A stretch of 61,995 nucleotides of DNA, counting the filler, from Nemertoderma westbladi (Eukaryota > Animalia > Xenacoelomorpha): assembly GCA_032718475.1 (NCBI GenBank). It is 3 parts of 3 records of this genome, joined end to end, with 100 filler letters (N's around TTAATTAATTAA, not from the genome) between each part and the next. Parts side by side here need not be neighbours in the genome. Positions count along the whole stretch, not along the records: positions 1 to 25,886 come from JAUCBJ010000189.1; 2 more parts are not named here. One strand, written 5' to 3'. The translations under genes were made by a program, and so were the position numbers. Numbering within the stretch: position 1 is the stretch's first letter; the number at the start of each line of letters is the position of its first letter. This document shows, one piece after another, positions 1-25,986 of this stretch. Below the pieces are notes generated by a model. It ran no database searches. It worked only from the letters and a program-made list of their open reading frames with translations, and was not told the origin of the DNA.

Positions 1-697
1 TTTGTCTGTCTGTCTGTGCGGCTGTCTTTGTCTGTCTGTCTGTGCGGCTGTCTTTGTCTGTCTGTCTGTGCGGGTGTCTTTGTCTGTCTGTCTGTGCGGC
101 TGTCTTTGTCTGTCTGTCTGTGCGGCTGTCTTTGTCTGTCTGTCTGTGCGGCTGTCTTTGTCTGTCTGTCTGTGCGGCTGTCTTTGTCTGTCTGTCTGTG
201 CGGCTGTCTTTGTCTGTCTGTGCGGCTGTCTTTGTCTCTCTGTCTGTGCGGCTGTCTTTGTCTGTCTGTCTGTGCGGCTGTCTTTGTCTGTCTGTCTGTG
301 CGGCTGTCTTAGTCTGTCTGTCTGTGGGGCTGTCTTAGTCTGTCTGTCTGTGCGGCTGTCTTAGTCTGTCTGTCTGTGCGGCTGTCTTAGTCTGTCTGTC
401 TGTGCGGCTGTCTTTGCCTGTCTGTCTGTGCGGCTGTCTTAGTCTGTCTGTCTGTGCGGCTGTCTTTGTCTGTCTGTCTGTGCGGCTGTCTTTGTCTGTC
501 TGTCTGTGCGGCTGTCTTTGTCTGTCTGTCTGTGCGGCTGTCTTTGTCTGTCTGTCTGTGCGGCTGTCTTTGTCTGTCTGTCTGTGCGGGTGTCTTTGTC
601 TGTCTGTCTGTGCGGCTGTCTTTGTCTGTCTGTCTGTGCGGCTGTCTTTGTCTGTCTGTCTGTGCGGCTGTCTTTGTCTGTCTGTCTGTGCGGCTGT
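1..697. repeat. 26-bp minisatellite built on (TCTG)n, unit TTTGTCTGTCTGTCTGTGCGGCTGTC; runs off the window start
   Basis: Unit repeats directly about 27 times with rare variants (tta/ttt, cgggtg). Confidence 0.97.
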
Positions 698-1781
698 TTT
701 ATGCTGTAAGTGACAACATAGGGCCTATTGCTGTACAACTGAAATACAGAATTGACTCAGAACTGATCAGTTTCACCACTCAGCATTACGCGAGGATAAA
801 CCCCACTAGGCCTACCTCCTTTACGACTAGCTCCTTAAAGAGGATTGTTTCTCGACGGACTTCTGGACAGCTTCAGAGTGAGGAAATAACTTTTGACAGG
901 GCCACCTTCCGTGTGACCACAGAAGAAGTTTTGGCGTGGCACGATCTCGTTATCCTCGATAACCGATCGCTAAGAAGCCTATCGATCGTGAGGAGACTGG
1001 TTGCCTAACAACCACAGAAATAAACCAACAGCTAGAACGTAAAGTAGAAGAGGATTACCAAGGTTGCTGCCATATATAGTGAGACACTGTACTCATCTGC
1101 TGGACTGCGAAAGGTAAGAATATCGAACCAACCACCATTGACTGCTCATCATCCGATTGAAGTTTGTTATGTTATCCACCTTTGAATTCATAATCATCTT
1201 CGTAATTATTTTCTATACCAATCAAATCATTATCATATTACTATCGCATAATTTGTAGTCTGTGCTGTGATTGTCCCTAGGCCCAACTGTTTCTCATTTA
1301 ATGTTTAATACTACCTGAATGTCTGTTCTGTTTTCTGTTTACCACACTATTTCATATGACATACATTTGGCCATAATTTCACCATTATCTTCCTAAAAAG
1401 CTTGTGAAAATCACATACTCTATCTCGAATCTATTGATTATACGATACATTTTGCTTTTATTTTTCTGCTGACCTATTGGTAAATATCATATCTCTTCTA
1501 TATATTGTAATTGATGTGTATAGCAAAACCCCTGTGTGTAACTCGATCACGGAATTTTAATTTTGTCATTGTTTTAAAATTTTCAGTTGGCCTACATACC
1601 AGAAGGGCTACACTGGTAAATTGCGGGTATAAATTCTGGTTCTTTGTTTTTGTTTTTGCATTCACAAACGTTTTTAAGTTTCCCTTTTGGTCTGAAGTCA
1701 CGTTAGCTCCCACCACTAAAAATACTTTTGATCTTCATTTTTCTCATCAACACACTGTTTTCTTTGCCACCAATTATCCAC

Positions 1782-4700
1782 ATGGCTCCAATATTGGAGA
1801 AGACCCCAGACATTAGGAAAATGAGCACTGCTCGACTTAAGTCATTCCTTTCCAGTCGGAACCTTTCACCCTCTGGAACACGGGCAGCTTTACTGCTTAG
1901 AGCCGAGAGGTCTATAAAGATAAATACAACTAACAACATAAACAATCCAGCATTGGATTTGGCTGAAAACTTTAATTTGGATCCAGATCAATCAGTATAC
2001 CTTACTGTTACTCCAGAGTCTGTGACAAGATCTGCTGTGAACCCTATGGTAGACCAAACATATATGTCTAATAAAATTCCCCTAACTGAAGACAGCTCTG
2101 CTGGTAAATACAATAGAGCTTCTGCTTTGAGTATGGATAATACTAATATAACAGTCAATGGTGCACCAGTAAATGAGCAATCTGTAATCGTCCTTGAATC
2201 TACTATAGATTGCTCCAATAGTCAAATTGATACACCACCAGACGCTACATCTCAACCAACACCAACCTGCAAACCTCCAATCCCCTGTCAAGCAATACAC
2301 TATTCTCAAATAACACCTTCATCTCAACCAAAACCATTTTCTCCAATAAATGTCCTTTCTCAACCCACACTCACTTCTCAAACAACACCCCCACTATTAA
2401 CACCTCATCTCCAACCTTCACTGTCTCAACCAACACCCCCCTCTCAATTAACTATCCCCTCTCAACCAACACACACTTCCGAACTAACACCCCGATTACA
2501 AACAACTCAATCCCAGCCAACACCTCCGCATCAAACAACACCCCCTCCTCAAACAGCACTGGGCCACCCTAAACCAACACTCTCCTCTCAAATAACACCC
2601 CCCTTACAAATACCTATTTTCCAACAAACACCCCCTTCGCAAAAATCAACCCCCTCACAACATATCCCTACTTCACAACCAATGCCACCATCTCAAACAA
2701 GATTATCTTTACAACCAATAACATCACCACAACAAACACCCCCTCTTCAACCAACACTCCATCCTCAGCCAACACCAACTTCTCAACCTACACCACTGGC
2801 ACAACCAAAGCCCCCTTCTCATCCTGCACCTCAGTCTCTTCCAGCATGTCCAGGCAGCAAAATAACAGATTTCTTCCATAAACTACCCAACTTAACAACC
2901 CCAACCACTGGCTGCTCTGAAATCACTTCCTATATGGTTCAAGATCATACAGCAACTGTAGATGCTGAAGTCTATGAGTGTTACCCAAATAACACCCAAC
3001 CCATCCCGGCAAAAAATCTTAATACACCCATTATGGAACACTTGAGTAAACTGACCACTATTCCACCAGGCATTGTCATTCCGCTTCCAAGTGATCTAAA
3101 AACACTAAGACCGAAATCTTGGCTGAGTGATACTGTAGTTTCGGGTTTCCTGTCATTATTGGAGCGGTCACTTCCACATACTGCTGCCATAAGTATTGAC
3201 CTCAGCACAAAGCTTCTCACTCCGCACTGTGATGAACTTAGCGCCATTAAATACTTATCACAGAGATACATAGGGCGATATCAAAATACCCCACCTCAAC
3301 TTTTATTCATCCCACAATGCCTTCAAGGACATTTTGTACTCCACATCGCAAATTGCATCAATAAAACCATCCACACACTGGACTCTCTAAAGCCATCCAT
3401 GCCAACCAAGACAACTTTTGCTCTAGTAGATTTACTGAACAAAATAGACCAATGCAACCCCTGGACCAATTCAAATGGAGTCAATGCTAGTACCATGCAC
3501 CCTATAGATATTATAAATGAGTCATGGACAGCTTCGGTCAATAACTCCCATTTCCCAAAACAAACAAACAGCTACGACTGTGGAGTATATGTTTGCCTAT
3601 ATGCGCTTGCTACAGCCAAAGACACAAAATCCATATCTCCAATCATTCACAATAGTGACACTGCTCGCCAGTGGATAAGTGACTGCCTCAACAATATGAA
3701 GTTGGTAGAGCATGCCGACATCAAACTAGACGAGAATGACAACCGTATACAACCTGAAAATACATCACCATACCCGAAATCATTAAAACATATAAATGAG
3801 GAAACCAAAGAATCTTTGAAGGGTTCAGTTCCAAGTAAAATTGACATGCTCAAGCAAATTCTTAGAAATTCTCGAAAAGTAGCTCTGAAAATCCTGTCTG
3901 ATAAAAACCTTGACGAACTGTTGGAACTAAGAAGTGTACTATTTGAACAAGTGAAGCCACTTATGACACCTTCACAGAATGTATCACTGAAATTAAAGCA
4001 GCATGCATCTCGGCCTGATACATCTGGAGACATACTAGAGCTGTACAAATGCATTAATGAATCTAAATTCCTGGAGTCATGCAGAAAGCGACTATATAAG
4101 ACAAAAGAAAATAATAACTTAGACACAATTGACTGTCTAAGGGCAGACCTACTGCATTCGGTTTCCACACTTCAATCACGCATCTGTATTATGGAGAAAG
4201 ATATATCAGCATTAAGAGAGAAGAATCAATCAATAACAGAAGAACTCCAACATGAGAGACACCAGCGCATGCTATTAGAAGCTAGAATAGGAGATCAAAA
4301 ACACAGAGATCAAGTCAACAATCAACATAAATCCATTTACAATGCTGACCCAGACAGGATATCTAATGACACTCTAAACAGAGCTGACAAGATCATGTCA
4401 TCACCATCATCACCAGCATATGTGAGTGTTTTATCTAAAAGGAAACAACTCACAGCTAGCCATATACTCAAACAACCAGTACAGGAACCAGATTCCATAT
4501 TATGTTCGAACAGATATATTGTCTTGGATGAAATAATTGATGATGACACTTCATCAGGTGAGAATGTACCAAGTGAATCACAACTTAATCAACAGGGTGA
4601 AACACTCACATCCAAAGGAATAAGGGGCAAGAATAACAATAACATTTTAGGGGCCAAAAAGCAAGTCTCAATGTCCTTCTCACATGTGAAAAGTAACCCA

Positions 4701-5276
4701 GAAAGCAAAATGAAACCAATCTGTCCTGGAAATCAAGAAGGCAAAAGTGAAATAAAACCTTATGATAGCTCCTCAAGAAAAAAAGTCAAACCATTCAATC
4801 ATTATGATGGGAATTCATCTCAATACAATGACTCATACAAAGGGGACTTGAAACCACTCACAAGAGACCGGGACCTATACTTCCCACCAGCTCATTCTCA
4901 AGGACAATTTTACTCTGACAAAAAGTTTCCAGGCAGTAAAACAAATACAAACAATAGGAATACTCTACAACATGCTGAATCACAAAAATTTGAAACAATT
5001 TTCGTAAATGGCATACACCGTGAAAATGAGGAGGAGGATATTCTAGACTACCTAAGCATCAAAGGGATTCGAGCAGGCAGAGTTACAACTAGGATTCATG
5101 GCAACTTCAAGAATATGAAAATTATGATACAACAGAACTGCTTGTGCTATGTGCTGTCGGATAACTTCTGGCCTTTTGGAATCATATGTACTGAATGGAA
5201 AAACCGCAGATCTGCATTCACGAATCAAGAACATAGCACTAAGTTTCCTTCGTACCCATTGAGGCAGCGTCTTTAA
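1782..5276 (+). CDS. LINE ORF1: SAP domain, Q/P/T-rich linker, Ulp1/SENP-like C48 protease, coiled coil, C-terminal RRM-like domain
   Basis: ATG 1782 (MAPILEK) aligns with the start of the homologous ORF at 16936. SAP-like MSTARLKSFLSSRNLSPSGTRAALLLR. C48 motifs: SWLSDTVV, FIP..GHF (His 3330), LDSL (Asp 3381), QTNSYDCGVY (Cys 3579). Heptads in LQSRICIMEKDISALREKNQSITEEL. ORF1-type ending IFVNGI...FWPFGIICTEW. Confidence 0.9.
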   Translation: MAPILEKTPDIRKMSTARLKSFLSSRNLSPSGTRAALLLRAERSIKINTTNNINNPALDLAENFNLDPDQSVYLTVTPESVTRSAVNPMVDQTYMSNKIPLTEDSSAGKYNRASALSMDNTNITVNGAPVNEQSVIVLESTIDCSNSQIDTPPDATSQPTPTCKPPIPCQAIHYSQITPSSQPKPFSPINVLSQPTLTSQTTPPLLTPHLQPSLSQPTPPSQLTIPSQPTHTSELTPRLQTTQSQPTPPHQTTPPPQTALGHPKPTLSSQITPPLQIPIFQQTPPSQKSTPSQHIPTSQPMPPSQTRLSLQPITSPQQTPPLQPTLHPQPTPTSQPTPLAQPKPPSHPAPQSLPACPGSKITDFFHKLPNLTTPTTGCSEITSYMVQDHTATVDAEVYECYPNNTQPIPAKNLNTPIMEHLSKLTTIPPGIVIPLPSDLKTLRPKSWLSDTVVSGFLSLLERSLPHTAAISIDLSTKLLTPHCDELSAIKYLSQRYIGRYQNTPPQLLFIPQCLQGHFVLHIANCINKTIHTLDSLKPSMPTKTTFALVDLLNKIDQCNPWTNSNGVNASTMHPIDIINESWTASVNNSHFPKQTNSYDCGVYVCLYALATAKDTKSISPIIHNSDTARQWISDCLNNMKLVEHADIKLDENDNRIQPENTSPYPKSLKHINEETKESLKGSVPSKIDMLKQILRNSRKVALKILSDKNLDELLELRSVLFEQVKPLMTPSQNVSLKLKQHASRPDTSGDILELYKCINESKFLESCRKRLYKTKENNNLDTIDCLRADLLHSVSTLQSRICIMEKDISALREKNQSITEELQHERHQRMLLEARIGDQKHRDQVNNQHKSIYNADPDRISNDTLNRADKIMSSPSSPAYVSVLSKRKQLTASHILKQPVQEPDSILCSNRYIVLDEIIDDDTSSGENVPSESQLNQQGETLTSKGIRGKNNNNILGAKKQVSMSFSHVKSNPESKMKPICPGNQEGKSEIKPYDSSSRKKVKPFNHYDGNSSQYNDSYKGDLKPLTRDRDLYFPPAHSQGQFYSDKKFPGSKTNTNNRNTLQHAESQKFETIFVNGIHRENEEEDILDYLSIKGIRAGRVTTRIHGNFKNMKIMIQQNCLCYVLSDNFWPFGIICTEWKNRRSAFTNQEHSTKFPSYPLRQRL

Positions 5277-5313
5277 CAAAAAATCATGGAAAAAGCAATC
5301 CAGGTTATGCCAA

Positions 5314-8300
5314 ATGGGAGGACTTCATCATCTACAGGCAGATACAACGGCAGGTCTAATATCACCAGAATCTAGCTCAACTGACATGCACTGTAAAACT
5401 GAGCGATTAGATATGTCAACAAATGATGTTATCTATAGGAAAGAATATCTTGCAACAAAGGATGCATTGCCATTAACTCAACTTAGAATATCCACATATA
5501 ACTGCCGCGGGTTCAACGGAAATGCTCCATACATAACTGATCTACTGGAAGATTGTGATGTTTTAGGAATTCAAGAACACTGGTTAGATGCACAGGAATG
5601 TGAACTTTTTCTCAGAAATCTGCACATCGAGTTTGAAGTTGAGTTTACAGTCAGCAAACAAATGTCAAATCCACTCAGAAAAAGAGGAGTTGGTGGAACA
5701 GCACTTTTCTACCGCAAAAACATTTTCAATGTCATAAATAAGTTTGAATCTGGTGGTGATATAACTGGTATTGTGACGAATGTCAAATCTCTCAATGTCA
5801 ATCCCATTGCCCTAATTGCAGGATATGCTCCAGACAGTGGTAAGGATGACCAAACATTTAGCTCTTTCCTGGGGAGATTGGAGGCAACTTTGACGCATTT
5901 CAGTCATGCAACACCATTCATCATGATTGATGCTAATGCCGATATTGGCTCCAGTCAAGGACCACGGTGTAACCAACAACAACCAACAAAGCGTGGTAAA
6001 ATGCTATTAAATTTTCTCACTGATAACAAACTTACAGCTGTTGATACCCTAGAATTATGCAATGGCCCGTGTCATACATTCCAGGGCCATGGAAATTCTT
6101 ATATTGACCATGTACTCACAAACCTCAATGGACTTCGACTCTGCACAGAAGGTCAGGTGTATGACCATGACGAACTCAGGAATGGATCAGACCACAGCCC
6201 AGTATCAATTAAACTATATCCTATTTTAGCTCCAGCAACCGAACCTAAAGAGGAAGCCATAAGCAACACCACAGTGAGAATGAAATGCACCAAGAAACAA
6301 CTGTTACTTAATTGGAACAAAACATCGGCTGAAAATATATCCAAATATAAAATAGAGGTGAACACCAATCTCAAAGCACTCCAGGAAGAGTATGGCAATA
6401 ACCCTATTACCTGGACAGAAAAAATAATGAATGTGTATCTAGAGAAAGTGACACACACCATTCAGCAAGCAGCTTCAAAGTTTATCATGAAAATCACAAT
6501 CAGAAAGAAAACCAAAAACCTTAGAATAATAAACAAGAAGCTCAACTCTCGGAGCAAAACAACAAAAGGTTTATATAAACAATGGTGCAGTAATGGAAAG
6601 TCACCTTATGACCCACTTGGGGAGGCCTTTAAAGAGTCCAAAAAGAATAGCCGTAGACTCAGAAACTGGTTGGCAAACAAGCTGACAGCGGATCAGGTAT
6701 TGAGGGCAACAAGCAACAAGAACACATCACCAAAAGACTATTGGAAATTCTTCAGCACTAAAAAGAATAGTCCGAAAGCAGCAGATCCAACAACTGAGGA
6801 AAGGATAAAATCATATTTCTCAAAAAAATTTCGATGTGAAAATGATAACACAAATACTCAAGACCTTCTCACTCTCAACAAAGACCTAGATGATGAATGT
6901 GATGGCTCTTGTACCCCGGTGATCTCAGAATTGTGGGTAAAATGCGCGATCTTTTCTCTGAATCGAGGGAAGGCACCAGATTTTGACACATTGACTGTCG
7001 AACACCTTTTAAATCTTGATCCAATAGTAATTTCGGTATGCTTAAGGAATGTTATTCAAGCTGCCCTCCTGCTAGGAAAAGTTCCCACCTCTTTTGGTAG
7101 AACATTATTAAACACCATACACAAAGGCTCAAGAAAGGATCCTTACTGCCCAAAATCATTCAGGCCTGTGTCAACAATTAGTATCTTTGCCAAAATTATG
7201 GAAGCGATAATCTTGAAACACTACCTAACCAACATTGCTCCAGCTGAACTCCAAACAGCTTACCGTAAGGGCTTGGGAACAGATATTGTGGTAGCAGCAT
7301 TGCTTGAGTTAATCCACAACAATGAAAAGCAAAACCAAGGAACATATGTGTGTCAGATGGACATACAGAGTGCCTTCGATGAGGTGAATCATTGCAAACT
7401 TTTCAACAAACTGAGACATAAAATCAACCCATATGTTTGTAGAATGTTGGTGCATTACTACTCAAATAGCTATATGTTCATCAAGTTTGGTCAATGTATT
7501 GACACTGATGGGTTCAAGGTAACAATTGGAATACTTCAAGGTTCAATCCTCTCACCACACCTCTTCAACTTCTTCCTAAGAGAAGTCTTCACAGACATGG
7601 AGAATATCAAACTTGGGTGCTTCATCAATAATCAATGGCTTGGCTGCCTTTCGTATGCAGATGACATACTCCTAATATCTACATTATCCAGTGAAATTGA
7701 AATGATGAGTGCACGCCTAAATGAGTCACTCAGAAAAATTGGACTTGGCATAGCCACTGATAAAACAAAATGGACGTACTGCAAGCCCCCTAGAAGTAAC
7801 AAGTATATACCATGCTTCCTTAACCTGATGGGTGATCTTGTTCCCTTTAGTAGGAGCATAACATTTCTCGGCTATAAGGTATTTCATGAGCCCATTACAG
7901 CTTACCATGATGTTATCTGCAAAATCACGTTGCTATCGGAGATTTTCCACAGAAATGGTTGGACATCGCGTAAGCATGAGGTAAAGGACGTTAGAAAAAT
8001 TTGGAACTCATGCGCATTACCTTCTCTACTCTATAATCTTACCTTCCAAATTGGCACACTTACTGATACTCAAGTGAAATCACTCGATGCTTACTACCGA
8101 AAACATCTGAGGGGACTACTATGCGTCGGCAACTACTTGAGTAACAGCACTGTAATAGGGCTCTTTAACACAGGAAATCTGTCAAACGAAGCTTTCAAGA
8201 GTATGCTCAGACTTATCCAGCGAGTGAAGTACTGCCCTAGCCTCACCCTCCAATACTGCCTCCGTATTAACCTTGATAAATCTTGTAATACTTCTAAAGA

Positions 8301-8538
8301 CAATTACCTAGGACTAGGTGGAACTTATAACAGAGCAAATCAGGAGTACGCAATTCCATCTACCAACTCACTTTTAAATTCAGTGTACAACAAGAAGTCT
8401 CTAATGAAATACGTCTGTGAAGGCACAACAAGTTACATTGAAGATCGACATATTGATTTCATCACATCTGTATTTACCCTCAGAAGAGAACATTTCTCCA
8501 TTAAAAATCAACGAATCAGGGAATACTTTAATGTATAA
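5314..8538 (+). CDS. LINE ORF2: apurinic-like endonuclease plus reverse transcriptase
   Basis: APE motifs TYNCRG, IQEHW, IDANA, YIDH, SDHSP. RT motifs FRPVS, MDIQSAFD, QGSILSP, YADD, FLG. Uninterrupted 1074 aa; exact start codon uncertain. Confidence 0.96.
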   Translation: MGGLHHLQADTTAGLISPESSSTDMHCKTERLDMSTNDVIYRKEYLATKDALPLTQLRISTYNCRGFNGNAPYITDLLEDCDVLGIQEHWLDAQECELFLRNLHIEFEVEFTVSKQMSNPLRKRGVGGTALFYRKNIFNVINKFESGGDITGIVTNVKSLNVNPIALIAGYAPDSGKDDQTFSSFLGRLEATLTHFSHATPFIMIDANADIGSSQGPRCNQQQPTKRGKMLLNFLTDNKLTAVDTLELCNGPCHTFQGHGNSYIDHVLTNLNGLRLCTEGQVYDHDELRNGSDHSPVSIKLYPILAPATEPKEEAISNTTVRMKCTKKQLLLNWNKTSAENISKYKIEVNTNLKALQEEYGNNPITWTEKIMNVYLEKVTHTIQQAASKFIMKITIRKKTKNLRIINKKLNSRSKTTKGLYKQWCSNGKSPYDPLGEAFKESKKNSRRLRNWLANKLTADQVLRATSNKNTSPKDYWKFFSTKKNSPKAADPTTEERIKSYFSKKFRCENDNTNTQDLLTLNKDLDDECDGSCTPVISELWVKCAIFSLNRGKAPDFDTLTVEHLLNLDPIVISVCLRNVIQAALLLGKVPTSFGRTLLNTIHKGSRKDPYCPKSFRPVSTISIFAKIMEAIILKHYLTNIAPAELQTAYRKGLGTDIVVAALLELIHNNEKQNQGTYVCQMDIQSAFDEVNHCKLFNKLRHKINPYVCRMLVHYYSNSYMFIKFGQCIDTDGFKVTIGILQGSILSPHLFNFFLREVFTDMENIKLGCFINNQWLGCLSYADDILLISTLSSEIEMMSARLNESLRKIGLGIATDKTKWTYCKPPRSNKYIPCFLNLMGDLVPFSRSITFLGYKVFHEPITAYHDVICKITLLSEIFHRNGWTSRKHEVKDVRKIWNSCALPSLLYNLTFQIGTLTDTQVKSLDAYYRKHLRGLLCVGNYLSNSTVIGLFNTGNLSNEAFKSMLRLIQRVKYCPSLTLQYCLRINLDKSCNTSKDNYLGLGGTYNRANQEYAIPSTNSLLNSVYNKKSLMKYVCEGTTSYIEDRHIDFITSVFTLRREHFSIKNQRIREYFNV

Positions 8539-9278
8539 TACCACACCACACACACAGATCATTGGTACTAACACTCGTTATTTTACCTTAATGCTGGATT
8601 AGTGACTTCCAAAATTAAAGTTATAAAAATTGTATTGTGTATATTGAGATGAACCACTTACATCAACCAACATAACGGTTTAGCTGTGCTCTCGTGACTG
8701 GGTGACTTAGTCACCAATTTTATATGTGCAGCTATTAAATACTACCACTATGCTATCAAACCAACTACCGTCGACTGGCTGTCATGCTATTAGTCTTGTT
8801 ATTAACCATCCAAATCGTAATCCTGCTTGTTTCCACCCTACCGGTAATTAATTTCCGTATCAATCAAATCATTATTACATTACTATCGCTTCATTTGATG
8901 TCTGTGAACCTAACTAATGAACTGCATAATGTATAAATATTGTCTCCTTTTGCTTCATAATCAATGTCAATCATAATGTTATTTCAACTATTGTTTCTTA
9001 TTTAACTTTGCCCAAATCTCATACCAAACCAATAATAAACACAATCTACTGATTATGTTATACTTATGCACACTTATTGCACACTTACTATATATATACA
9101 TATGCCTATGACATCTTATTGTAAATTTTAATCTGTGCTGTGTAATTTTTAAATTTTAATTTGTATCTCTGAATGTCTTATACCGATTTTAATGTGTCAA
9201 TCTTGTGCACTTTTATTATATGTTCTTGTGCAATTTTATGTCAATTTTATTTGATTAAAACAATGAAATGAAATGAAA

Positions 9279-9804
9279 TGTACTATAAAATCGCGCTTCC
9301 CACTTAACCTATTGTACTATAAAATCGCGCTTCCCACTTAACCTATTGTACTATAAAATCGCGCTTCCCACTTAACCTACTGTACTATAAAATCGCGCTT
9401 CCCACTTAACCTACTGTACTATAAAATCGCGCTTCCCACTTAACCTATTGTACTATAAAATCGCGCTTCCCACTTAACCTACTGTATTATAAAATCGCGC
9501 TTCCCACTTAACCTATTGTACTATAAAATCGCGCTTCCCACTTAACCTATTGTACTATAAAATCGCGCTTCCCACTTAACCTATTGTACTATAAAATCGC
9601 GCTTCCCACTTAACCTACTGTACTATAAAATCGCGCTTCCCACTTAACCTATTGTACTATAAAATCGCGCTTCCCACTTAACCTATTGTACTATAAAATC
9701 GCGCTTCCCACTTAACCTATTGTACTATAAAATCGCGCTTCCCACTTAACCTACTGTACTATAAAATCGCGCTTCCCACTTAACCTATTGTACTATAAAA
9801 TCGC
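9279..9804. repeat. 34-bp satellite, block 1 (~15 units), unit TACTATAAAATCGCGCTTCCCACTTAACCTA(T/C)TG
   Basis: Exact 34-bp period (unit starts at 9281, 9315, ...). Confidence 0.98.
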
Positions 9805-11464
9805 TATTATACCCGACTAAGTGCTGCCTCACCGTCAAGCCGGAGAAGTTGGAGGAGGCAAAGGAGATTTTCGCGGACACCGGCGTTGCCATCGACACGG
9901 TGGGGAACAAACTCCTCGGCGGAGTAATCGGGACCGAGGAGTTCCAGCGCGAGTACACCGAGCGGAAGGTGGAGGAGTTCGCCGCCGACGTGGATCGCCT
10001 CGCCACCATCGCCGCAGTCGACCCGCACTGCGCGTACGCCGGCCTCGCCTTCGGTCTCTCCTGCCGGTGGCGGTTCTTGGCGCGCGTCGTCCCAGGGGCC
10101 ACGGATTCTTTTGGGAAGTTGGAGGAGGCCGTGGAACAGTGCCTCTGCCGGATCATTGACCGGCCGGCGGTATCGGCGACGGAACGCGAGTTGCTGTCGC
10201 TACCGGTTCGGGATGGGGGGCTGGGGATCCCGGTTCCCGAGGATCTACGACCCCAATACGAGAACTCCCGGAGGATCTGCGACCCGTTCATCTCCATGGA
10301 GGGTGAGTCAATGGTGACGATTAGGGAAGAGCAGACGCACGTAGAGAAGTTAGTTGCAGCCTCCTCCTCTGTTGTAGCGAAAGCTAAAAAGGAGGAGGTT
10401 TATGACAAATTAAGTAGTGAAATGCACAATTTGTGCGGACTAACTACTGAGAAAGGTGCGTCTGCCTGGCTAAATACCAAACCCTTAACGTTGCACGACA
10501 CTCACCTGTCCAAGGAAGAGTTCCGTGACGCAGTTTGTCTCCGGTACGGTTGGTCGCCAAGAAATCTTCCCTCTCGTTGTGTCTGTGGGTCGCGATTTTC
10601 TCCTTCCCACGTTCTGTCGTGTCCCACTGGGGGGTTCCCCTCAATCAGACACAACGAGATCCGCGATTTCGTCGCCGACTCCCTGACTGAGGTGGCCCAC
10701 AACGTGGCTGTCGAGCCGATGCTCCAGCCGCTGACGGGGGAGTCCTTCACTCTCCGGTCCACCTCGACGGACCAGCAGGCGAGACTCGACGTGTCGGTAA
10801 GCGGATTCTGGGGCAACCGCTTCCAGAAGATGTTTATCGACGTGTCGGTGTTCAACCCGCTGGCGGACACCAACGCAGCGATGTCGCTGGACGCCGCCCA
10901 CCTCCATCACGAGGCGAGGAAGATCCGGAGATACGAGGAGCGGATCCGTGAGGCTGAGCACTCAACCTTCACCCCCCTCATATTTTCCGCTTTCGGGGGC
11001 ATGGCGCCGGCTGCGAAGCAGTTTGTCAAGCGGCTGGCATTGAGGCTGTCGGAGAAACGACGGGTTCCCTACCCGGAGTCGGTAGCGTGGGTGCGGCGAC
11101 GCATCAACTTCGCCTTACTCCGGTCGTCCCTGATGTGCCTCCGTGGGTTTCGGTCGGCCGCTAGAAGACCGGTGCGGGCAGCGGTGGCGGACGCGTCCAT
11201 TGTGTGGGCGAACGCGGACTCGGACCCCGGGACGGCTTAGAAGTTAGAGGTCTGGCAGGTTTGTTGGGTACTGGCAGTGGCAGAGTGGCAGACTGGTGAT
11301 GGGTACTGAACCAATTTGTATTGTTTGTATTGTTGCTAGGTAACAGTTTGAATCAGCTGGTGGTGGGTTATATTTGTACTTGTTTTGGTGCGTTTTTATA
11401 TTCGAATTATTGTTTGTTAATATTATAATATATGGAGGCTTTTGAGTAAAAAAAAAAAAAAAAA
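9805..11464 (+). mobile_element. 5'-truncated CRE-type non-LTR retrotransposon with restriction-like endonuclease, poly(A) tail and TSD
   Basis: A17 tail at 11448-11464. TSD TAAAATCGC at 9796-9804 and 11465-11473. GC-rich body contrasts with the flanks. Confidence 0.92.
9849..11240 (+). CDS. C-terminal part of CRE-type polyprotein (RT end, zinc knuckle, RLE nuclease); truncated, no true start
   Basis: The frame stays open upstream (YPTKCCLTVKPEK). LPVRDGGLG; CVCG..HVLSC..RHN zinc motif; RLD..IDV..HEARKIRRY PD-(D/E)xK-like nuclease. Confidence 0.88.
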   Translation: MEEAKEIFADTGVAIDTVGNKLLGGVIGTEEFQREYTERKVEEFAADVDRLATIAAVDPHCAYAGLAFGLSCRWRFLARVVPGATDSFGKLEEAVEQCLCRIIDRPAVSATERELLSLPVRDGGLGIPVPEDLRPQYENSRRICDPFISMEGESMVTIREEQTHVEKLVAASSSVVAKAKKEEVYDKLSSEMHNLCGLTTEKGASAWLNTKPLTLHDTHLSKEEFRDAVCLRYGWSPRNLPSRCVCGSRFSPSHVLSCPTGGFPSIRHNEIRDFVADSLTEVAHNVAVEPMLQPLTGESFTLRSTSTDQQARLDVSVSGFWGNRFQKMFIDVSVFNPLADTNAAMSLDAAHLHHEARKIRRYEERIREAEHSTFTPLIFSAFGGMAPAAKQFVKRLALRLSEKRRVPYPESVAWVRRRINFALLRSSLMCLRGFRSAARRPVRAAVADASIVWANADSDPGTA

Positions 11465-14012
11465 TAAAATCGCGCTTCCCACTTAACCTATTGTACTATA
11501 AAATCGCGCTTCCCACTTAACCTATTGTACTATAAAATCGCGCTTCCCACTTAACCTATTGTACTATAAAATCGCGCTTCCCACTTAACCTATTGTACTA
11601 TAAAATCGCGCTTCCCACTTAACCTATTGTACTATAAAATCGCGCTTCCCACTTAACCTACTGTACTATAAAATCGCGCTTCCCACTTAACCTACTGTAC
11701 TATAAAATCGCGCTTCCCACTTAACCTACTGTACTATAAAATCGCGCTTCCCACTTAACCTACTGTACTATAAAATCGCGCTTCCCACTTAACCTATTGT
11801 ACTATAAAATCGCGCTTCCCACTTAACCTACTGTACTATAAAATCGCGCTTCCCACTTAACCTATTGTACTACTAAATCGCGCTTCCCACTTAACCTATT
11901 GTACTATAAAATCGCGCTTCCCACTTAACCTACTGTACTACTAAATCGCGCTTCCCACTTAACCTATTGTACTATAAAATCGCGCTTCCCACTTAACCTA
12001 TTGTACTATAAAATCGCGCTTCCCACTTAACCTATTGTACTATAAAATCGCGCTTCCCACTTAACCTATTGTACTATAAAATCGCGCTTCCCACTTAACC
12101 TATTGTACTATAAAATCGCGCTTCCCACTTAACCTATTGTACTATAAAATCGCGCTTCCCACTTAACCTACTGTACTATAAAATCGCGCTTCCCACTTAA
12201 CCTACTGTACTACTAAATCGCGCTTCCCACTTAACCTACTGTACTATAAAATCGCACTTCCCACTTCACCTATTGTACTATAAAATCGCGCTTCCCACTT
12301 AACCTATTGTGCTATAAAATCGCGCTACCCACTTAACCTACTGTACTATAAAATCGCGCTTCCCACTTAACCTACTGTACTATAAAATCGCGCTTCCCAC
12401 TTAACCTACTGTACTATAAAATCGCGCTTCCCACTTAACCTACTGTACTATAAAATCGCGCTTCCCACTTAACCTACTGTACTATAAAATCGCGCTTCCC
12501 ACTTAACCTACTGTACTATAAAATCGCGCTTCCCACTTAACCTACTGTACTATAAAATCGCGCTTCCCACTTAACCTACTGTACTATAAAATCGCGCTTC
12601 CCACTTAACCTACTGTACTATAAAATCGCGCTTCCCACTTAACCTACTGTACTATAAAATCGCGCTTCCCACTTAACCTACTGTACTATAAAATCGCGCT
12701 TCCCACTTAACCTATTGTACTATAAAATCGCGCTACCCACTTAACCTACTGTACTATAAAATCGCGCTTCCCACTTAACCTACTGTACTATAAAATCGCG
12801 CTTCCCACTTAACCTATTGTACTATAAAATCGCGCTTCCCACTTAACCTATTGTACTATAAAATCGCGCTTCCCACTTAACCGATTGTACTATAAAATCG
12901 CGCTTCCCACTTAACCTATTGTACTATAAAATCGCGCTTCCCACTTAACCTATTGTACTATAAAATCGCGCTTCCCACTTAACCTATTGTACTATAAAAT
13001 CGCGCTTCCCACTTAACCTATTGTACTATAAAATCGCGCTTCCCACTTAACCTATTGTACTATAAAATCGCGCTTCCCACTTAACCTATTGTACTATAAA
13101 ATCGCGCTTCCCACTTAACCTATTGTACTATAAAATCGCGCTTCCCACTTAACCTATTGTACTATAAAATCGCGCTTCCCACTTAACCTATTGTACTATA
13201 AAATCGCGCTTCCCACTTAACCGATTGTACTATAAAATCGCGCTTCCCACTTAACCTATTGTACTATAAAATCGCGCTTCCCACTTAACCTACTGTACTA
13301 TAAAATCGCGCTTCCCACTTAACCTATTGTACTATAAAATCGCGCTTCCCACTTAACCTATTGTACTATAAAATCGCGCTTCCCACTTAACCGATTGTAC
13401 TATAAAATCGCGCTACCCACTTAACCTATTGTACTATAAAATCGCGCTTCCCACTTAACCTATTGTACTATAAAATCGCGCTTCCCACTTAACCTATTGT
13501 ACTATAAAATCGCGCTTCCCACTTAACCTATTGTACTATAAAATCGCGCTTCCCACTTAACCTATTGTACTATAAAATCGCGCTTCCCACTTAACCTATT
13601 GTACTATAAAATCGCGCTTCCCACTTAACCTATTGTACTATAAAATCGCGCTTCCCACTTAACCTATTGTACTATAAAATCGCGCTTCCCACTTAACCTA
13701 TTGTACTATAAAATCGCGCTTCCCACTTAACCTATTGTACTATAAAATCGCGCTTCCCACTTAACCGATTGTACTATAAAATCGCGCTTCCCACTTAACC
13801 TATTGTACTATAAAATCGCGCTTCCCACTTAACCTATTGTACTATAAAATCGCGCTTCCCACTTAACCTATTGTACTATAAAATCGCGCTTCCCACTTAA
13901 CCTATTGTACTATAAAATCGCGCTTCCCACTTAACCTATTGTACTATAAAATCCGCTTCCCACTTAACCTACTGTACTATAAAATCGCGCTTCCCACTTA
14001 ACCTATTGTACT
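11465..14012. repeat. 34-bp satellite, block 2 (~75 units)
   Basis: Same unit as block 1. Confidence 0.98.
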
Positions 14013-14396
14013 TCGAGTTTATTGCCAAAGAGAACGAGCATTAAAGCAGACACAGTACACAGTTTATAATACAATATAGAGCGCATGCAGGCGCATCATC
14101 CGGACAAGCCGGCATTTATTTGTGTTAATTTAAAAGGGAAGTACAAAATAAAATCAAATAGCAGAAGTATATAAAATAGCACTGTTAGTAAAATAATTGA
14201 TATGACATTTGAGAATAATTAAAACAGACTGCTACTACTAAGCCATTCATAATAAAAGAATAAAATCCGGATCATCTAAAAGAGCTATGCTCATAAGTTC
14301 AGGTAAAATTACTGATTGTATTCGGTTCATTAAAGACTCAATAATTACGAGTTATAGTTCGTACACGATAAATCAAAATAGGATACGATCCAGCAA

Positions 14397-15584
14397 TCAC
14401 GTCACCCTAACTTTATTTATCCAGTTAAAATATTGTTCTATCCTATGATGACGCATTTTGAAAGGCAACGACTGCGAATAGCACTGCAAAATAAAATCGC
14501 GGTCGGATTCCTCCGCCATTGTGAGTGCTGCAGGTTCTAAAAGCTTATATAGTGAGCATTTACTATATTTATAGCACAAAATTGAGCTCAAACTGGGGAT
14601 CGCATACTTTTGAGAACATTTTTCAAAAACTGAGCCCAGTCCTACATAAAGGTTATTTGTTGTCCCAGACAGGTTAGCCTGTAATGCGATACGCAGGATG
14701 GACTGTAATAAAACATTTGGGCACTTATTTACTCTGGTTAATGTTCCGACGCAAAGTTTATACATTTCCACACTAAAATCGTTGCATCCGAGTAATGCAA
14801 GGGTTACGTTGTTGCTTGAATAAGGACCCACGAAAAGTAAACCTCGCAGAGTCTTCCGGTAATAAGAGTCAAGTTCAGCGATTTCTTTTGAACATAGCGA
14901 ACCAATAAGATACCGCGATGAGTAGGATATGGTTGGTACAGCTATGGACCGCCACAGGTATCCCAGTGTGCTGCAATCGAGCCAGCGCGCATTCCACCCA
15001 TTTCGATGAAATAAATCCGACATTATGGCTATCGAGCGGATGCAATCCTGGAGGCTGTTGCGACGTGGATGTACAATGGGGAAGCCCAAAAAGGTCATGT
15101 CATCTGATCGTGGAACTAATGTTCCATTGATGCACATAAATGTAGGGACATTCTCACAAGAATAATCATTACCATAGCAGGACCACTTTGTTTTGCTCAT
15201 CTCAATCTCCAGTTTCACTTTATTCATTTCAATGCTGAAAATATCAGCGGCCAATGTCAGTTCGGTGACAGATGTTGCAGTGAGCAGTATATCATCAGCA
15301 TAAGCTATGATGCCCAGCCAAATGAGCCCAACGATGGACCCAAATCCGTTTAAGCTTAGAATATCCAGAACATCCTTCATATAAAGAAGAAACAGTAAAG
15401 GTGACAACAGTGACCCCTGCTTGACTCCACGTACCAGGTTGATCCCACAAACATCTATCTCGTCGGCAACCTTGAGAAAGGCACAAGTAGATTCATAATA
15501 CGCTAGTAGAACTAGGCAGATGTAAGGGTTTATTATCTCCTTTAGTTTACTGAACAGTAGAACAAAGTCGAGGCTACCAAATGC
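14397..15584 (-). pseudogene. C-terminal half of RT ORF2 of element B
   Basis: AF(G)SLD, GVKQGSLLSP, YADD, FLG. The C-terminal region aligns with A (FHRNGW, YYRKxLRGLL). Confidence 0.88.
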
Positions 15585-16936
15585 ACCACAGAATGTTGCT
15601 TTAGATCTGCAATGTGTAGAACAAAGTGATCTTTGTGACAATCAGGGAAGAATATAAGTGATGTGGTGCCAATGTTGCAAGAGGAGGCAATATACTTAAT
15701 GGCACTGGCAGTATCAAAGTTGTTCTGATGCAATTTACTGCACAAAGCGGTGTCAATACAGCCAATTCTGTTTCCACCTTGAACACCCAGTAATGAGAGG
15801 AAGGAGTCCACTACCGTTGTTGTTAATTTCTGACCAGGTTGGAAGTACCTCCAGTCAGGGTCACTTGGCTTTAAAAGCACCAGTCCTTTGCGAATGTTTG
15901 TATTAAAAATTGCGTCTTTCACACGTTCTTCGTCATAAGATAGTTCTAGATCAGGGTAGAATTTGTTATGTTCACCAGTAGTACCAGTACTGGGATTGTG
16001 ATGGTAACATCCAACATACTGAACATCATCAGAGTCTCCTTGCTTGGACTGGAGTACAGGTATTGGATTCATAGGATTGAATAATTTGGCACCAGGATCC
16101 AGCAAAGATTCCATGGGATCAGAGACTATCGCAGTGGTTTTTCTGAAGAAATCAGTGATCTTCCTGCTAGACTTACGGGGTTTCCAAGAGCCATCATCTT
16201 GTAAGTCCTCTATTAGAACCGAATTACAAGTAACTGAAGCAAATGGAGGGATTTGGGCGGGATCATTCGGGGAGTTTACCTCCGTCGCCTCAGGGATTAG
16301 AGTGGGATCCTCTGGGGAGCTTACCTCCGTCGCCACTGGGATTAGGGCGGGATACTCCGGGGAGATTACCTCTGTTGCCTCCGGGATTAGGGCGGGATTC
16401 TCCAGCGAGTTTAACTCCGTCACCTCCGGGATTAGTGTGGGATCCTCCGGGGAGTTTACCTCCATCACCTCCGGGATTAGGCCGTGATCTTCCAGGGAGT
16501 TAACCTCCGTCGCCTCCGGGATTAGGGCGGGATACTCCGGGGAGTTTACCTCTGTTGCCTGCGGGATTAGGGCGGGGTTCTCCAGCGAGTTTACCTCCGT
16601 CATCTCCGAGATTAGGGCGGGATCCTCCAGCGAGTTTACCTCCGTCGCCTCCGGGATTACGGCGGGATTCTCCGGCGAGTTTGCCTCCAGGATTAGGGTG
16701 GTATACTCTGGAGTGTTTACCTCCTTCGTCTCGGGAATGACAGCGGGGTCCACTAAGGAGTCGACCGGGACAACAGAATCCAGAGATACGACACCGTTAA
16801 TAATAAGCCGATCCGCACGGGTCAGTAGTTCAGCTCGGCGTCCAGTAGATGGTACTTCGTGTTTCGCTAAAAATGATTTAAGGCGTGCAGTGTTCATTTT
16901 CCGACACATCTCCATTGTTTCTTTGATTTCCGCCAT
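15570..16936 (-). pseudogene. N-terminal part of ORF1 of element B (SAP, 15-aa repeats, start of Ulp1-like domain)
   Basis: RKMNTARLKSFL..G.RA.LL.RA.R, KITDFF, VVDSFLSLL and HFVLHIA all match ORF1 of A. Ends at the deletion junction. Confidence 0.88.
16260..16760 (-). repeat. 45-bp coding tandem repeat (15 aa, EVNSPEDPALIPEAT-like, ~11 copies)
   Basis: Visible in DNA (gggagtttacctcc with 45-bp period) and in the translation. Confidence 0.9.
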
Positions 16937-17029
16937 CTTGAGCTTTCGCCTTTTTTTGTTAACAACTCAGTATAAATAAAATAAATCATTAAAAATAAAT
17001 TCATGCAGGTGTCTACTGCTGCAGTACCG

Positions 17030-18679: not shown

Positions 18680-21535
18680 ATTTTTTCATTTCACAAGGTA
18701 CACCGGTCAAGCCGGTATTTATATTGAAGTAAAAAGTATATATTAATACTGAATAAAAACCGAACAAACTATACAAAATTAAAAATGTCATAAGGTTCAT
18801 AGGTTAATTATTGTAAATGGAGGAAAAATCTGTGCAAAAGATAATTATTTTAAGAAATACTGCAGTATGCGGTTATGTTTTGCCGCAAATCCGCATTGGC
18901 CAGAGTTATAACAGTTATATATAAAGTCCGCATTGACAATATCTTTTCCTGTTGGATGTCCGTGGTTTATGTGAGATTTCAGTGTCCGTTTATGGTACCG
19001 GTTTACACACATTGAAAATAGTGAGGGTATCGGGAATTCTCGAGTCGCTCGCATATATGTATTTCCCAGTCCAGGATAGCGCCGCTTTGACTGATAGTTC
19101 CAGATAAGACCAAGTCGTAGCAGCAACTGAAGTTTGAGATGTGGACTAACTACCAAACGCAGCATGCAATTAGTCACGTCACGGTATACCTCAAGTGATA
19201 GATCTCTACATCCTGAGAGTTTCCTTAATGTAGCATTATTGACGTACGATCCAACATAAAGAAGTCCCCTGAGTATCTTTCTATAATATGCATTCATAGA
19301 TTCGATTTCATCTTGATTTAGATTCCCTATTATGAATTTTATTTTGTACAGAATTGCTGGTATGGCCATCGTGGACCAAAGATTGAACACTGTGTTTATG
19401 GTGTACCATCGAATGGTCCAGCCATTTTTGTGAAACGCATGTGACATAGACGCAAGAGTTTGAATTATGACTGAGTAATTAGTGTTACAGTTATTATTTC
19501 CATATAAGGTGTGGCCAAGGAATTTGATTGTTTGGGATTCAGGGAATAGGCAATTTGCTGAGTTGATGAATAGGGGTCGGTATGTGTTTTTGGGTATAAT
19601 GCTCATCCATTTTGATTTTGTGGGTTCCATATTTAGGTTCAATTTATCCATTTCATATGATAGTAATGCTAGCATACTAGTAATCTCCTCTTTATTATTG
19701 CACAATAAAACTATATCATCCGCATAGCAAACTAGACCTGACCAGATGTTGTGAAAAGATACTCCAAGGCCTGTTTTCTCAACTGAATCTAAGGCTCCCT
19801 TTAAATAGACATTAAATAGCGTTGGTGACAACAATGATCCTTGTTTTACACCTATCCTTGTTCGAATTCCATTGGTCAATATCATATCTCCGAACTTTAG
19901 AAACAGTAATCCAACTCTGTAATAATTAATTAGGGTCAAACAGATAAAAGGGCAAATATGCTCCGAGAGGGTTTTAAATAATACACTGTAAGAGACATGA
20001 TCGAATGCACCTGCTATGTCCAACTGAAATATGTAAAGGGACTGATTTCTCTGACGATGTGACTCAATAATTTCCTGTATCAACGCTACTACAAGATCTG
20101 ATCCAACTCCTTTTTTGTACCCATATTGGCATGAGTTTGTAGATATGTATGGAAGAATGAATTGTTTGAGGGTGATAGCTTCGAACAGTTTACCAAATAC
20201 AGATACAGTGGCAATTGGTCGATAGCTATTTGGTCGTGTAGTTCCACGGTTTCCACTTTTATATATGTATGTTATCAGTGTCCTTCCATAGACTTCAGGG
20301 ACTGTCTGCAATCGGATTGAGGCATTGAAGATGTTGCATAAGTGTACAGCAGCATAGTTTTCATCAAGATGAAGAATGTGCTCTGCTGAAAGATTAAAGA
20401 AATCTGGAGATTTGCCCCTAGCTAATGCTAGTATAGCATGTTTAACAGTATCCTCTGATATTGTTGGAGGACTTCTACCTTCTGATAGTAGTTTCAGTTC
20501 GATGACTACTTTGTCTAACTCACTTTCAGCATCAGTTTCAGCTGAGTTCATAACATGTATTAAATTATCTCTCAGTGATTTAGCCATGCTGATGGGAGCT
20601 GTTCCTTCTTTAGTTGAGAAGTGTTTCCAGAACTCATGAGGATTATTCCTGTTATGTACTATGCCGCCAGTTTTGGATCTTACTGATTGTTTCGCAAGCC
20701 AGTTTCTAAGGCGCCTTAGTGATTTCTTTGACTCTTTCAATGCTATGCTAAAAGAGTCCCTTTTAATTTTACCATTTTGCTTCCAAATTTTATACAGCTC
20801 CTTAGTAGTATTTGCATGACTAGATATTAATTTGTTCCTTATACGAATATTGGTCGTCTTTTTTCGAAATTTACTGACAGGTATAAAGAGATTGGCTCCC
20901 TCTGTAATAGCTCTCTGCATCTCCTCGGTGTATCTATTCAATTCCTCAGATGTCCAATCGAGAGAGTTCATGCTGCTTGAGTGGAGATTATCCAGCTTAT
21001 TCTCTACATACTCCTTATAACTGTTGAGTTGAGCTGTAGTCGCCTTACTCCAGGCTACTCGTGGTAATCTTTTGGTAAATTCCTGTGTATTCTCCTTGTT
21101 ATTTGTATTATGTTCATTTACAATTGCTATCTCAGCTACTACTGGACTGTGATCAGAGAGAGCATGGACATGTGGGTTTATTACCTCACCGCTCACTATT
21201 AGTTGGTCACCAGGGTTGGTTGTGAGTATATGGTCTATATATGAATCGCCCTGAGGCCCCCTGAAAGTAACAGATGGTCCTGAAAATTTACCATATGTAT
21301 CTACTGCCACTAAATTGTTCGCAGCCAAGAACTCCGATAGCAACCTGCCATTGCGATTCGGGAGTTTTTTTGTCCAACGTTGACCACATGTGTTCCCAAG
21401 GTCAGCATTTGCATCTAAGAGAATGTAAGGTATAGCTTGATTATTACATTCCAAAATTTGTTTGATTCTGCCAAGAAAGTCATCATACTGCTCCTTTGGC
21501 TTGGATGTATCTGGCGCATATCCAGATAAGAATAT
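18680..21535 (-). mobile_element. 5'-truncated LINE (element C), third family of the same lineage
   Basis: Tail GAAATGAAAAAATGAA on the minus strand. 11-bp TSD AATCGCGCTTC at 18669-18679 and 21536-21546. Confidence 0.92.
18845..21535 (-). CDS. ORF2 of element C (truncated APE plus full RT), frame intact
   Basis: GYAPD, LDANADLG, YIDH, SDHSP, LDIAGAFD, QGSLLSP, YADD. Shares lineage-specific motifs with A (KESKK..RRLRNWLA, GK.PDF..L..EH). The listed GTG start comes from the satellite. Confidence 0.9.
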   Translation of the reverse strand: MFLSGYAPDTSKPKEQYDDFLGRIKQILECNNQAIPYILLDANADLGNTCGQRWTKKLPNRNGRLLSEFLAANNLVAVDTYGKFSGPSVTFRGPQGDSYIDHILTTNPGDQLIVSGEVINPHVHALSDHSPVVAEIAIVNEHNTNNKENTQEFTKRLPRVAWSKATTAQLNSYKEYVENKLDNLHSSSMNSLDWTSEELNRYTEEMQRAITEGANLFIPVSKFRKKTTNIRIRNKLISSHANTTKELYKIWKQNGKIKRDSFSIALKESKKSLRRLRNWLAKQSVRSKTGGIVHNRNNPHEFWKHFSTKEGTAPISMAKSLRDNLIHVMNSAETDAESELDKVVIELKLLSEGRSPPTISEDTVKHAILALARGKSPDFFNLSAEHILHLDENYAAVHLCNIFNASIRLQTVPEVYGRTLITYIYKSGNRGTTRPNSYRPIATVSVFGKLFEAITLKQFILPYISTNSCQYGYKKGVGSDLVVALIQEIIESHRQRNQSLYIFQLDIAGAFDHVSYSVLFKTLSEHICPFICLTLINYYRVGLLFLKFGDMILTNGIRTRIGVKQGSLLSPTLFNVYLKGALDSVEKTGLGVSFHNIWSGLVCYADDIVLLCNNKEEITSMLALLSYEMDKLNLNMEPTKSKWMSIIPKNTYRPLFINSANCLFPESQTIKFLGHTLYGNNNCNTNYSVIIQTLASMSHAFHKNGWTIRWYTINTVFNLWSTMAIPAILYKIKFIIGNLNQDEIESMNAYYRKILRGLLYVGSYVNNATLRKLSGCRDLSLEVYRDVTNCMLRLVVSPHLKLQLLLRLGLIWNYQSKRRYPGLGNTYMRATREFPIPSLFSMCVNRYHKRTLKSHINHGHPTGKDIVNADFIYNCYNSGQCGFAAKHNRILQYFLK

Positions 21536-21592
21536 AATCGCGCTTCCCACTTAACCTACTGTACTATAAAATCGCGCTTCCCACTTAACCTA
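21536..21592. repeat. 34-bp satellite, terminal block (<2 units)
   Basis: Same unit; the array ends here. Confidence 0.9.
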
Positions 21593-23130: not shown

Positions 23131-23394
23131 GGTCAGAGACTTGCTGGGGACTTACCTAGATCTATTATTCTATTGCAAACACCCACCCCCCTAATAATAT
23201 TAACCCTATTAAATTACTAACCTGCGAAATCTTACTCCACGAGTTAAATTTAATTTATTGAATTGGTTCCTTGCAATGCAAGCCGCCTCTGTAACCTGTT
23301 CATTTACGCTTGAAATGTAATTAGTATTTCATTGTTCGCCACACAGTTAAATTACTATGTTTATGGTGGTTTATTGTCTAATCTTTTGTTTCAG

Positions 23395-25886: not shown

Positions 25887-25986
25887 NNNNNNNNNNNNNN
25901 NNNNNNNNNNNNNNNNNNNNNNNNNNNNNNTTAATTAATTAANNNNNNNNNNNNNNNNNNNNNNNNNNNNNNNNNNNNNNNNNNNN
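25887..25986. other. Scaffold gap, 100 bp with artificial TTAATTAATTAA spacer
   Basis: N44 + spacer + N44. Confidence 0.97.

Follow-up and report, generated by a model that had tools for sequence, protein, structure and literature searches.

In a 61,995-nt stretch of the genome of Nemertoderma westbladi (GCA_032718475.1), hereafter called the window, we identified a long interspersed nuclear element (LINE), designated E1, whose first open reading frame (ORF1) joins a SAP domain and a Ulp1/SENP-type (C48) protease to a predicted coiled coil and a weak RRM-like domain. Judged by sequence and by a structural model, the protease looks catalytically complete and SUMO-protease-like. A diverged second family in the window, designated E2, carries the same SAP domain and the front half of the protease, and we lean towards the view that this ORF1 architecture has not been described before. 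As our preferred but tentative reading, possible rather than probable, we propose that the ORF1 protein (ORF1p) is a DNA-tethered SUMO isopeptidase, which rides in the element's own ribonucleoprotein particle (RNP) to the insertion site and eases insertion into heterochromatin. The window is eukaryotic in character and rich in repeats. It consists of three joined parts, with positions 1-25,886 derived from JAUCBJ010000189.1, and the joins at 25887-25986 and 47071-47170 are non-genomic filler (44 N, 12 bases, 44 N).

Results

ORF1 of E1 combines a SAP domain with a SUMO-protease-like domain

In ORF1, the SAP domain is followed by a low-complexity linker, the C48 protease, the coiled coil and the RRM-like domain (Table 1). 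Presence of SAP and Peptidase_C48 domains, which an earlier note on this DNA had claimed, was confirmed by Pfam matches above the respective cut-offs (SAP: 27.3 versus 23.9 bits; PF02902 on residues 501-615: 32.1 versus 20.7 bits). In phmmer comparisons, residues 437-614 matched yeast Ulp1 (1euv) with an E-value of 7.5e-13 and SENP1 with 1e-5, while SENP8 reached just 0.05. The catalytic set H517, D534, Q594 and C600 is complete and arranged in Ulp1 order, and the positions given in the earlier note for these four residues and for the WLSD motif were all five correct. Among 39 aligned C48 relatives the corresponding columns are conserved for His in 39, Asp in 35, Gln in 38 and Cys in 39 sequences. 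The W-L-x-D motif, represented by W448 and D451 in Ulp1, reads WLSD in E1 (W447, D450).

The protease was modelled with AlphaFold2 (AF2) using an alignment of 41 sequences, i.e. E1, E2 and 39 of the 44 protease matches obtained in the database search described below. The model reached a predicted local distance difference test score (pLDDT) of 85 and a predicted template modelling score (pTM) of 0.85, as compared to a pLDDT of 36 when a single sequence was used. Structure comparison placed SENP5, SENP3, SENP1, SENP2 and Ulp1 closest (Z 20.5-23.9, root-mean-square deviation (rmsd) 2.0-2.6, 185-193 aligned residues), with SENP5 as best match (Z 23.9, rmsd 2.1, 188 aligned). The NEDD8 protease SENP8 (Z 17.6-18.6), SENP7/Ulp2 (16-17) and bacterial or viral CE proteases (15.5 at most) followed at a distance. 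The C48 fold assumed in the earlier note is thereby borne out. SUMO contacts of Ulp1 include N450, E455, F474, T477 and W515 in addition to further residues, and the equivalents of W448, D451, T452 and T477 are retained in E1. D451 of Ulp1 forms an essential salt bridge to SUMO (PMC3216068).

The remaining parts of ORF1

For the coiled coil and the RRM-like domain, likewise postulated in the earlier note, the outcome was mixed. The RRM-like domain matches the C-terminal domain of four unannotated proteins (E 1e-4 to 8e-4, with 1.84 billion proteins searched), but it gave no Pfam match, and its top matches in the PDB, all of them RRM proteins (hnRNP RRMs), were non-significant (E 0.07-0.9). Locus scans with an alignment of the C-terminal domain returned one of 89 loci in one scan and none of 21 in another. 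Since the RRM-like domain runs into an APE-like frame (see below) at this single metagenome locus, L001, we count it as a LINE ORF1 domain. When residues 650-1164 were compared with the ESM Atlas, only unnamed eukaryote clusters were returned, whose scores (0.83-0.84) are under the trusted level. Homology of the region between protease and coiled coil to the N-terminal domain of database proteins P0049 and P0056 was considered but found no support (hhalign probability 0.1; scores of hidden Markov models not above those of shuffles).

The linkers of E1 and E2 are composed of unrelated repeat units (18 bp and 45 bp, respectively), and their alignment over the whole length is not significant (400 of 5000 shuffles were as good); yet both contain the motif KITDFFxK. 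KITDFF is the sole exact 6-mer common to the two linkers. An exact 6-mer was reached in 41 of 5000 shuffles, and the score of the 8-mer KITDFFxK was equalled in 16 of 2000. The PCNA-interacting protein (PIP) box, which binds PCNA, has the consensus Q-x-x-hydrophobic-x-x-F-F. KITDFFxK resembles this box, making it a PIP-like candidate for a PCNA-binding motif. In addition, a weak, degenerate motif resembling SUMO-interacting motifs (SIMs) is present in the E1 linker (VIVL-E, 2184-2195), and the E2 linker has a SIM-like motif as well.

E1 is an APE-type LINE with two open frames

The earlier note's description of E1 as an intact element with an apurinic/apyrimidinic endonuclease (APE) and a reverse transcriptase (RT) was found to be correct: both frames are open, and ORF2, which overlaps the end of ORF1 by 14 nt, matches PF03372, PF14529 and PF00078 above the Pfam cut-offs, with APE ahead of RT. 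Further hallmarks of two-ORF LINEs are seen among E1, E2 and a third family in the window, E3, namely (AATGA)n-like tails in E1 and E3, target-site duplications at E2 and E3, and 5' truncation of E3. E1 itself lacks a target-site duplication, because the repeats flanking it on either side differ (26-bp versus 34-bp array). In an RT tree with 12 other RTs, none of them named references, E1-E3 formed a clade with 100/100 support on a long branch and had no supported neighbour. The best database match of the E1 RT is P0003 (24% identity). By its motifs P0003 looks RTEX-like, and an affinity of the E1-E3 clade to RTEX/Proto2 is a tentative impression. Membership of E1 in the NeSL/Utopia group is ruled out by its two ORFs and APE, as opposed to a single ORF with a C-terminal restriction-like endonuclease (RLE).

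The SAP-protease fusion is shared with diverged relatives

E2 consists of the SAP domain, the linker and the front half of the protease, which is fused out of frame to the C-terminal part of the RT at around 15578-15587. It matches E1 in the SAP domain (E 4e-7) and in the protease as far as the His (E 2e-9), while the E2 SAP domain compared with PF02037 stays under the cut-off (21.3 bits, E 2e-4, versus 23.9). Thus, the earlier note was right that a second family (15570-16936) retains SAP together with the start of the protease, His included. However, its WLSD motif reads KLTT and the copy is internally deleted, which explains why Asp, Gln and Cys are absent. Identity between E1 and E2 amounts to 20/36 residues (56%) in SAP, 42/104 (40%) in the front half of the protease and 139/388 (36%) in the ORF2 remnant. 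As the former two values equal or exceed that of the RT, SAP and protease are as old as the split between E1 and E2 and are conserved at least as well as the RT. ORF2 of E3, which lacks ORF1, is 37% identical to that of E1.

DNA nearly identical to E1 is present in three public sequencing runs (X1, X2 and X3) from two studies; one of them is possibly the source. Because contigs cover 1115-3382 in all three runs, the joining of SAP and protease did not arise as an artefact of assembly. The 5' junction of E1 was recovered as well (run X2, record 9, 670-1138). Run X2 additionally contains a sister sequence, which is 82% identical to E1 over 3045-3454 and has W447 and D450 unchanged. Between 3075 and 3175 its differences affect 12 codons synonymously and 7 non-synonymously, giving a ratio of non-synonymous to synonymous changes (pN/pS) of 0.22 (p 0.001) that rests on 22 listed differences of the record's 75, the list being assumed complete for this interval. 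A dead copy in run X3, carrying a stop and a frameshift, has changes distributed 4:4:4 over the codon positions, i.e. the neutral pattern. In another diverged contig, found in X1 and X2, which may or may not belong to a LINE, alignment with E1 DNA is restricted to 3558-3611, which encode the Gln...Cys motif; the differing letters inside the match are unlisted. Translated by hand, the flanks of this match are open and resemble E1; on the downstream side, 5 of 10 residues are identical. These comparisons support the earlier note's view that SAP plus C48 in ORF1 is a trait of the lineage and not a single capture event, and they show this trait to be old and subject to purifying selection.

Contig depth along E1 climbs from 5' to 3', in X1 from ~40 to 160-230, and although depth does not equal copy number, this gradient is in line with what is expected for 5'-truncated copies. 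A variant of E1 lacking 5303-6095, which is most of the APE domain, occurs at high depth in X1, X2 and X3 and is possibly an amplified non-autonomous derivative. The untranslated regions (UTRs) of E1 share a 63-bp stretch (1202-1264 in the 5' UTR, 8844-8906 in the 3' UTR; 84% identity, E 5e-13), with a weaker 50-bp match directly upstream. Possibly the 3' end was reused as 5' leader, or both copies represent a common RNA signal. The 3' ends of E2 (~14100-14115, minus strand) and E3 (~18700-18716, minus strand) have in common the palindrome-like motif CCGGCTTG(A/T)CCGG, a candidate for a hairpin recognized by the RT; inspection of E1 by eye for this motif revealed none.

All three family members adjoin the same satellite

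E1, E2 and E3, all of the family members in the window, adjoin one 34-bp satellite. E2 and E3 lie inside the array, whereas E1 touches it with its 3' end, in opposite orientation to E2 and E3 and at the same GTAC. The array also harbors an unrelated, 5'-truncated retrotransposon with poly(A) tail (9805-11463, plus strand), which is flanked by a 10-bp duplication. It contains an open frame of 491 amino acids without Pfam match and is, by its motifs, presumably of the RLE type.

Table 1. Positions of E1, its parts, related elements and adjoining repeats in the window.
Feature	Position	Strand	Remarks
26-bp array	1-697		5' side of E1
E1	698..9279	+	apparently full-length two-ORF APE-RT non-LTR (long terminal repeat) retrotransposon
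ORF1	1782..5276	+	single open frame, 1164 aa
SAP domain	1809..1910	+	aa 10-43; PF02037
Linker	1911..3050	+	Pro/Thr/Gln/Ser-rich, 18-bp repeats
KITDFFHK	2859..2882	+	PIP-box-like without Gln; counterpart KITDFFRK in E2, from 16162, minus strand
Ulp1/SENP (C48) protease domain	3051..3716	+	W 3120, D 3129, H 3330, D 3381, Q 3561, C 3579
Middle region	3760..4130	+	fold without match; no significant similarity
Predicted coiled coil	4131..4319	+	aa 784-846; heptads read by eye; Pfam GAS E 0.07, sub-threshold
RRM-like C-terminal domain	4998..5225	+	domain type shared with further LINE ORF1s
ORF2	5263..8538	+	open; APE endonuclease and reverse transcriptase; first ATG 5314
3' UTR of E1	8539..9279	+	terminates in (AATGA)n tail
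34-bp satellite array	9279-18679 (span)		9279-9804, 11464-14012, 17030-18679; 2 further units at ~21535-21590; interrupted by retrotransposons
E2	14013..17029	-	second family, internally deleted; inside 34-bp array, AGTAC duplicated
E3	18680..21535	-	third family, 5'-truncated within APE, no ORF1; inside 34-bp array, 10-11 bp duplication

Comparison with known systems

Searching 1.84 billion proteins with ORF1 by phmmer yielded 48 matches, 44 to the protease alone and four to the C-terminal domain alone; in none of the 48 was the protease joined to the C-terminal domain or to SAP (Pfam run on 31 of them). Word-indexed protein searches with ORF1 gave no match at E 0.001 among 7989 and 3935 candidates, and locus scans with an ORF2 alignment gave 0 of 340 (metagenomes), 0 of 15 (genomes) and 0 of 70 (viral). 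As these collections are mostly prokaryotic, such blanks are no demonstration of rarity in eukaryotes. One database protein of 1342 amino acids, P0033, combines repeated C48 domains with a SET domain and thus represents a fusion of protease and chromatin enzyme.

Capture of Ulp1-like proteases by mobile elements is a recurring and known theme. Mutator-like and Zisupton/KDZ DNA transposons carry C48 proteases, and Zisupton elements pair SAP with a SUMO-protease domain, so the pair as such is probably not new. C48 proteases are also reported for CryptonF/CryptonS (PMC3212892) and Polinton/Ginger1 (PMC10175614). Like E1, the DNA transposons of this kind are mobile elements with a captured Ulp1-like protease; unlike E1, they encode a recombinase or DDE transposase and no RNA-packaging protein of a retrotransposon. 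Among non-LTR retrotransposons, Ulp1-like proteases occur in NeSL and Utopia-1_TSP, single-ORF elements with an RLE and a fixed target (spliced leader, U2), and the accessible text makes no mention of a SAP/RRM-type ORF1 (PMC4640811). In contrast, E1 has two ORFs and an APE, and its protease resides inside ORF1.

Accessory domains known from LINE ORF1s (Khazina-Weichenrieder types I-V) are PHD, esterase and CCHC, and PHD was proposed to help chromatin targeting at integration in a survey of Jockey, L2 and CR1 elements, the main text of which contains no mention of protease, peptidase, SAP or SUMO (PMC4120745). PHD-type ORF1s and that of E1 are alike in their modular build, with a chromatin-directed domain ahead of a coiled coil/RRM core, which in E1 is a predicted one; the add-on of the former is a reader, that of E1 a putative eraser enzyme. 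The words protease, peptidase and SUMO are absent from the main text of two further LINE surveys (PMC5203782, PMC13343379), and 'protease' does not occur in the accessible text of PMC10294476 and PMC5753468. In agreement with the earlier note's impression that the architecture is unfamiliar, the papers searched did not describe Ulp1/C48 or SAP within the ORF1 of any APE-type LINE, although a description may exist in Repbase, Dfam, subscription journals or supplements, all outside the scope of this search. Cellular Ulp1 and SENP1, 2, 3 and 5 share with E1 the fold, the His-Asp-Gln-Cys set and W-L-x-D. They differ from E1, which is just 20-25% identical, has SAP and an RRM-like domain attached, is encoded by a mobile element and deviates in the SUMO-contact residues discussed below.

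Other features of the window

An intronless frame of 673 codons on the minus strand (52016-54037) contains all three RMI1 Pfam domains and represents either the host RMI1 gene or a retrocopy. Disrupted APE-RT elements that are RTE-like, and so differ in type from E1-E3, are located at 38307-41415 (plus strand), 29293-29991 and 22514-23155 (both minus strand). At 36441-37025 (minus strand) a frame of 194 amino acids resembles, by eye, the RNase H region of BEL/Pao LTR retrotransposons.

Discussion

If ORF1p acts as a SUMO isopeptidase at the site of insertion, its parts could cooperate as follows. Coiled coil and RRM-like part would oligomerise and coat the element RNA, like other ORF1 proteins, and the SAP domain would grip chromatin DNA without sequence specificity, perhaps aided by the PIP-like motif through tethering to PCNA at sites of replication or repair. 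The protease would strip SUMO from proteins of chromatin, replication or repair in the vicinity, and heterochromatin that depends on SUMO would be loosened. ORF2 could then nick and prime reverse transcription, also in satellite DNA. DeSUMOylation may in addition delay silencing of the new copy.

Several observations weigh against this proposal. Residues N450, E455 and F474 of Ulp1 are replaced by S, S and D in E1, and N450S belongs to a temperature-sensitive allele of yeast Ulp1 (PMC3216068). The His-Trp pair (Ulp1 W515), with W in 38 of the 39 C48 relatives, is His-Phe in E1. In E2, the KLTT sequence leaves neither the W448 nor the D451 equivalent, which speaks against a constant mode of SUMO binding across the lineage. 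The AF2 model may be tilted towards a Ulp1-like fold, since its alignment contained mostly Ulp1-like proteins, and the limits of the pN/pS value and of the diverged contig, given above, count here as well. The KITDFF motif lacks the Gln of the PIP box, and its significance (p ~0.008) was assessed post hoc on n=2 sequences. Finally, the 34-bp array may merely tolerate insertions, as the unrelated element at 9805-11463 sits there too, and E1 is without strict satellite targeting because two X3 contigs carry another 3' flank.

The same evidence for an enzyme would also suit a role in transcription, the anti-silencing function put forward in the earlier note, in which free nuclear ORF1p, held by SAP, deSUMOylates PIAS/Su(var)2-10, SetDB1 or KAP1-like factors so that copies of the element are transcribed. 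SUMO-dependent repression of transposons has reportedly emerged from work on Su(var)2-10. However, SAP binds DNA independently of sequence and therefore cannot on its own single out the element's copies. SUMO-dependent repression as such is established, but knock-down of the host Ulp1 in Drosophila increases expression of R1/R2, so that deSUMOylation is not simply anti-silencing (PMC7676866; for repression also PMC12431652). We consider this alternative doubtful, albeit the foremost competitor of our proposal.

More unlikely is an active protease whose substrate is a different ubiquitin-like tag (NEDD8, ubiquitin), or whose specificity has become wider, and which shields the RNP from degradation or restriction. 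The altered contact residues in E1, including the His-Trp tryptophan, and the missing W and D in E2 would fit such an enzyme, and CE-clan enzymes acting on ubiquitin or NEDD8 have the same fold; however, SUMO proteases come out ahead of SENP8 and of bacterial deubiquitylases in comparisons of sequence and of fold, and the D451 equivalent is retained. It is improbable that the domain chiefly binds SUMO, as reader or tether, with catalysis being minor or dispensable: the SIM-like motifs in either linker and the loss of W/D in E2 would be compatible with this, but the catalytic set of E1 is full, and DNA likeness of diverged relatives peaks at the Gln...Cys motif. Quite improbable, too, is the alternative named in the earlier note, that the protease processes the element's own ORF1p or ORF2p. 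Ulp1-fold enzymes cleave at Gly-Gly, and ORF1 has no such motif in its 1164 residues, which makes self-processing of ORF1p unlikely, whereas ORF2 contains four; processing is not known to be required by any two-ORF LINE. The viral maturation proteases I7L and pS273R do have the same fold (Z 12-14), but they rank far below the SENPs. That the protease is a neutral passenger, a captured host fragment without role for the element, is very improbable and largely refuted, because the in-frame, intronless fusion is common to families with 36% identical ORF2 and shows a pN/pS of ~0.22, even though dead and truncated copies occur and close relatives are missing in other data sets.

A wider formulation of the SUMO isopeptidase reading appears unlikely to us. 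In it, a deep LINE lineage would use its RNA chaperone as a SUMO eraser, docked at replication forks and chromatin via SAP and the PCNA motif, whose SENP domain opens SUMO-silenced satellite heterochromatin for insertion. Such an ORF1 would be the enzymatic mirror image of the PIAS ligase and the first in a retrotransposon to edit host chromatin marks actively.

Ulp1-like proteases have repeatedly been acquired by unrelated mobile elements. E1, an intact LINE with two ORFs, carries such a protease beside a putative DNA tether, and does so in the protein predicted to package its RNA. If it is indeed a deSUMOylase, the transposon would bring along its own means against silencing that depends on SUMO, and the known types of ORF1 would be joined by one with an enzyme that edits chromatin.

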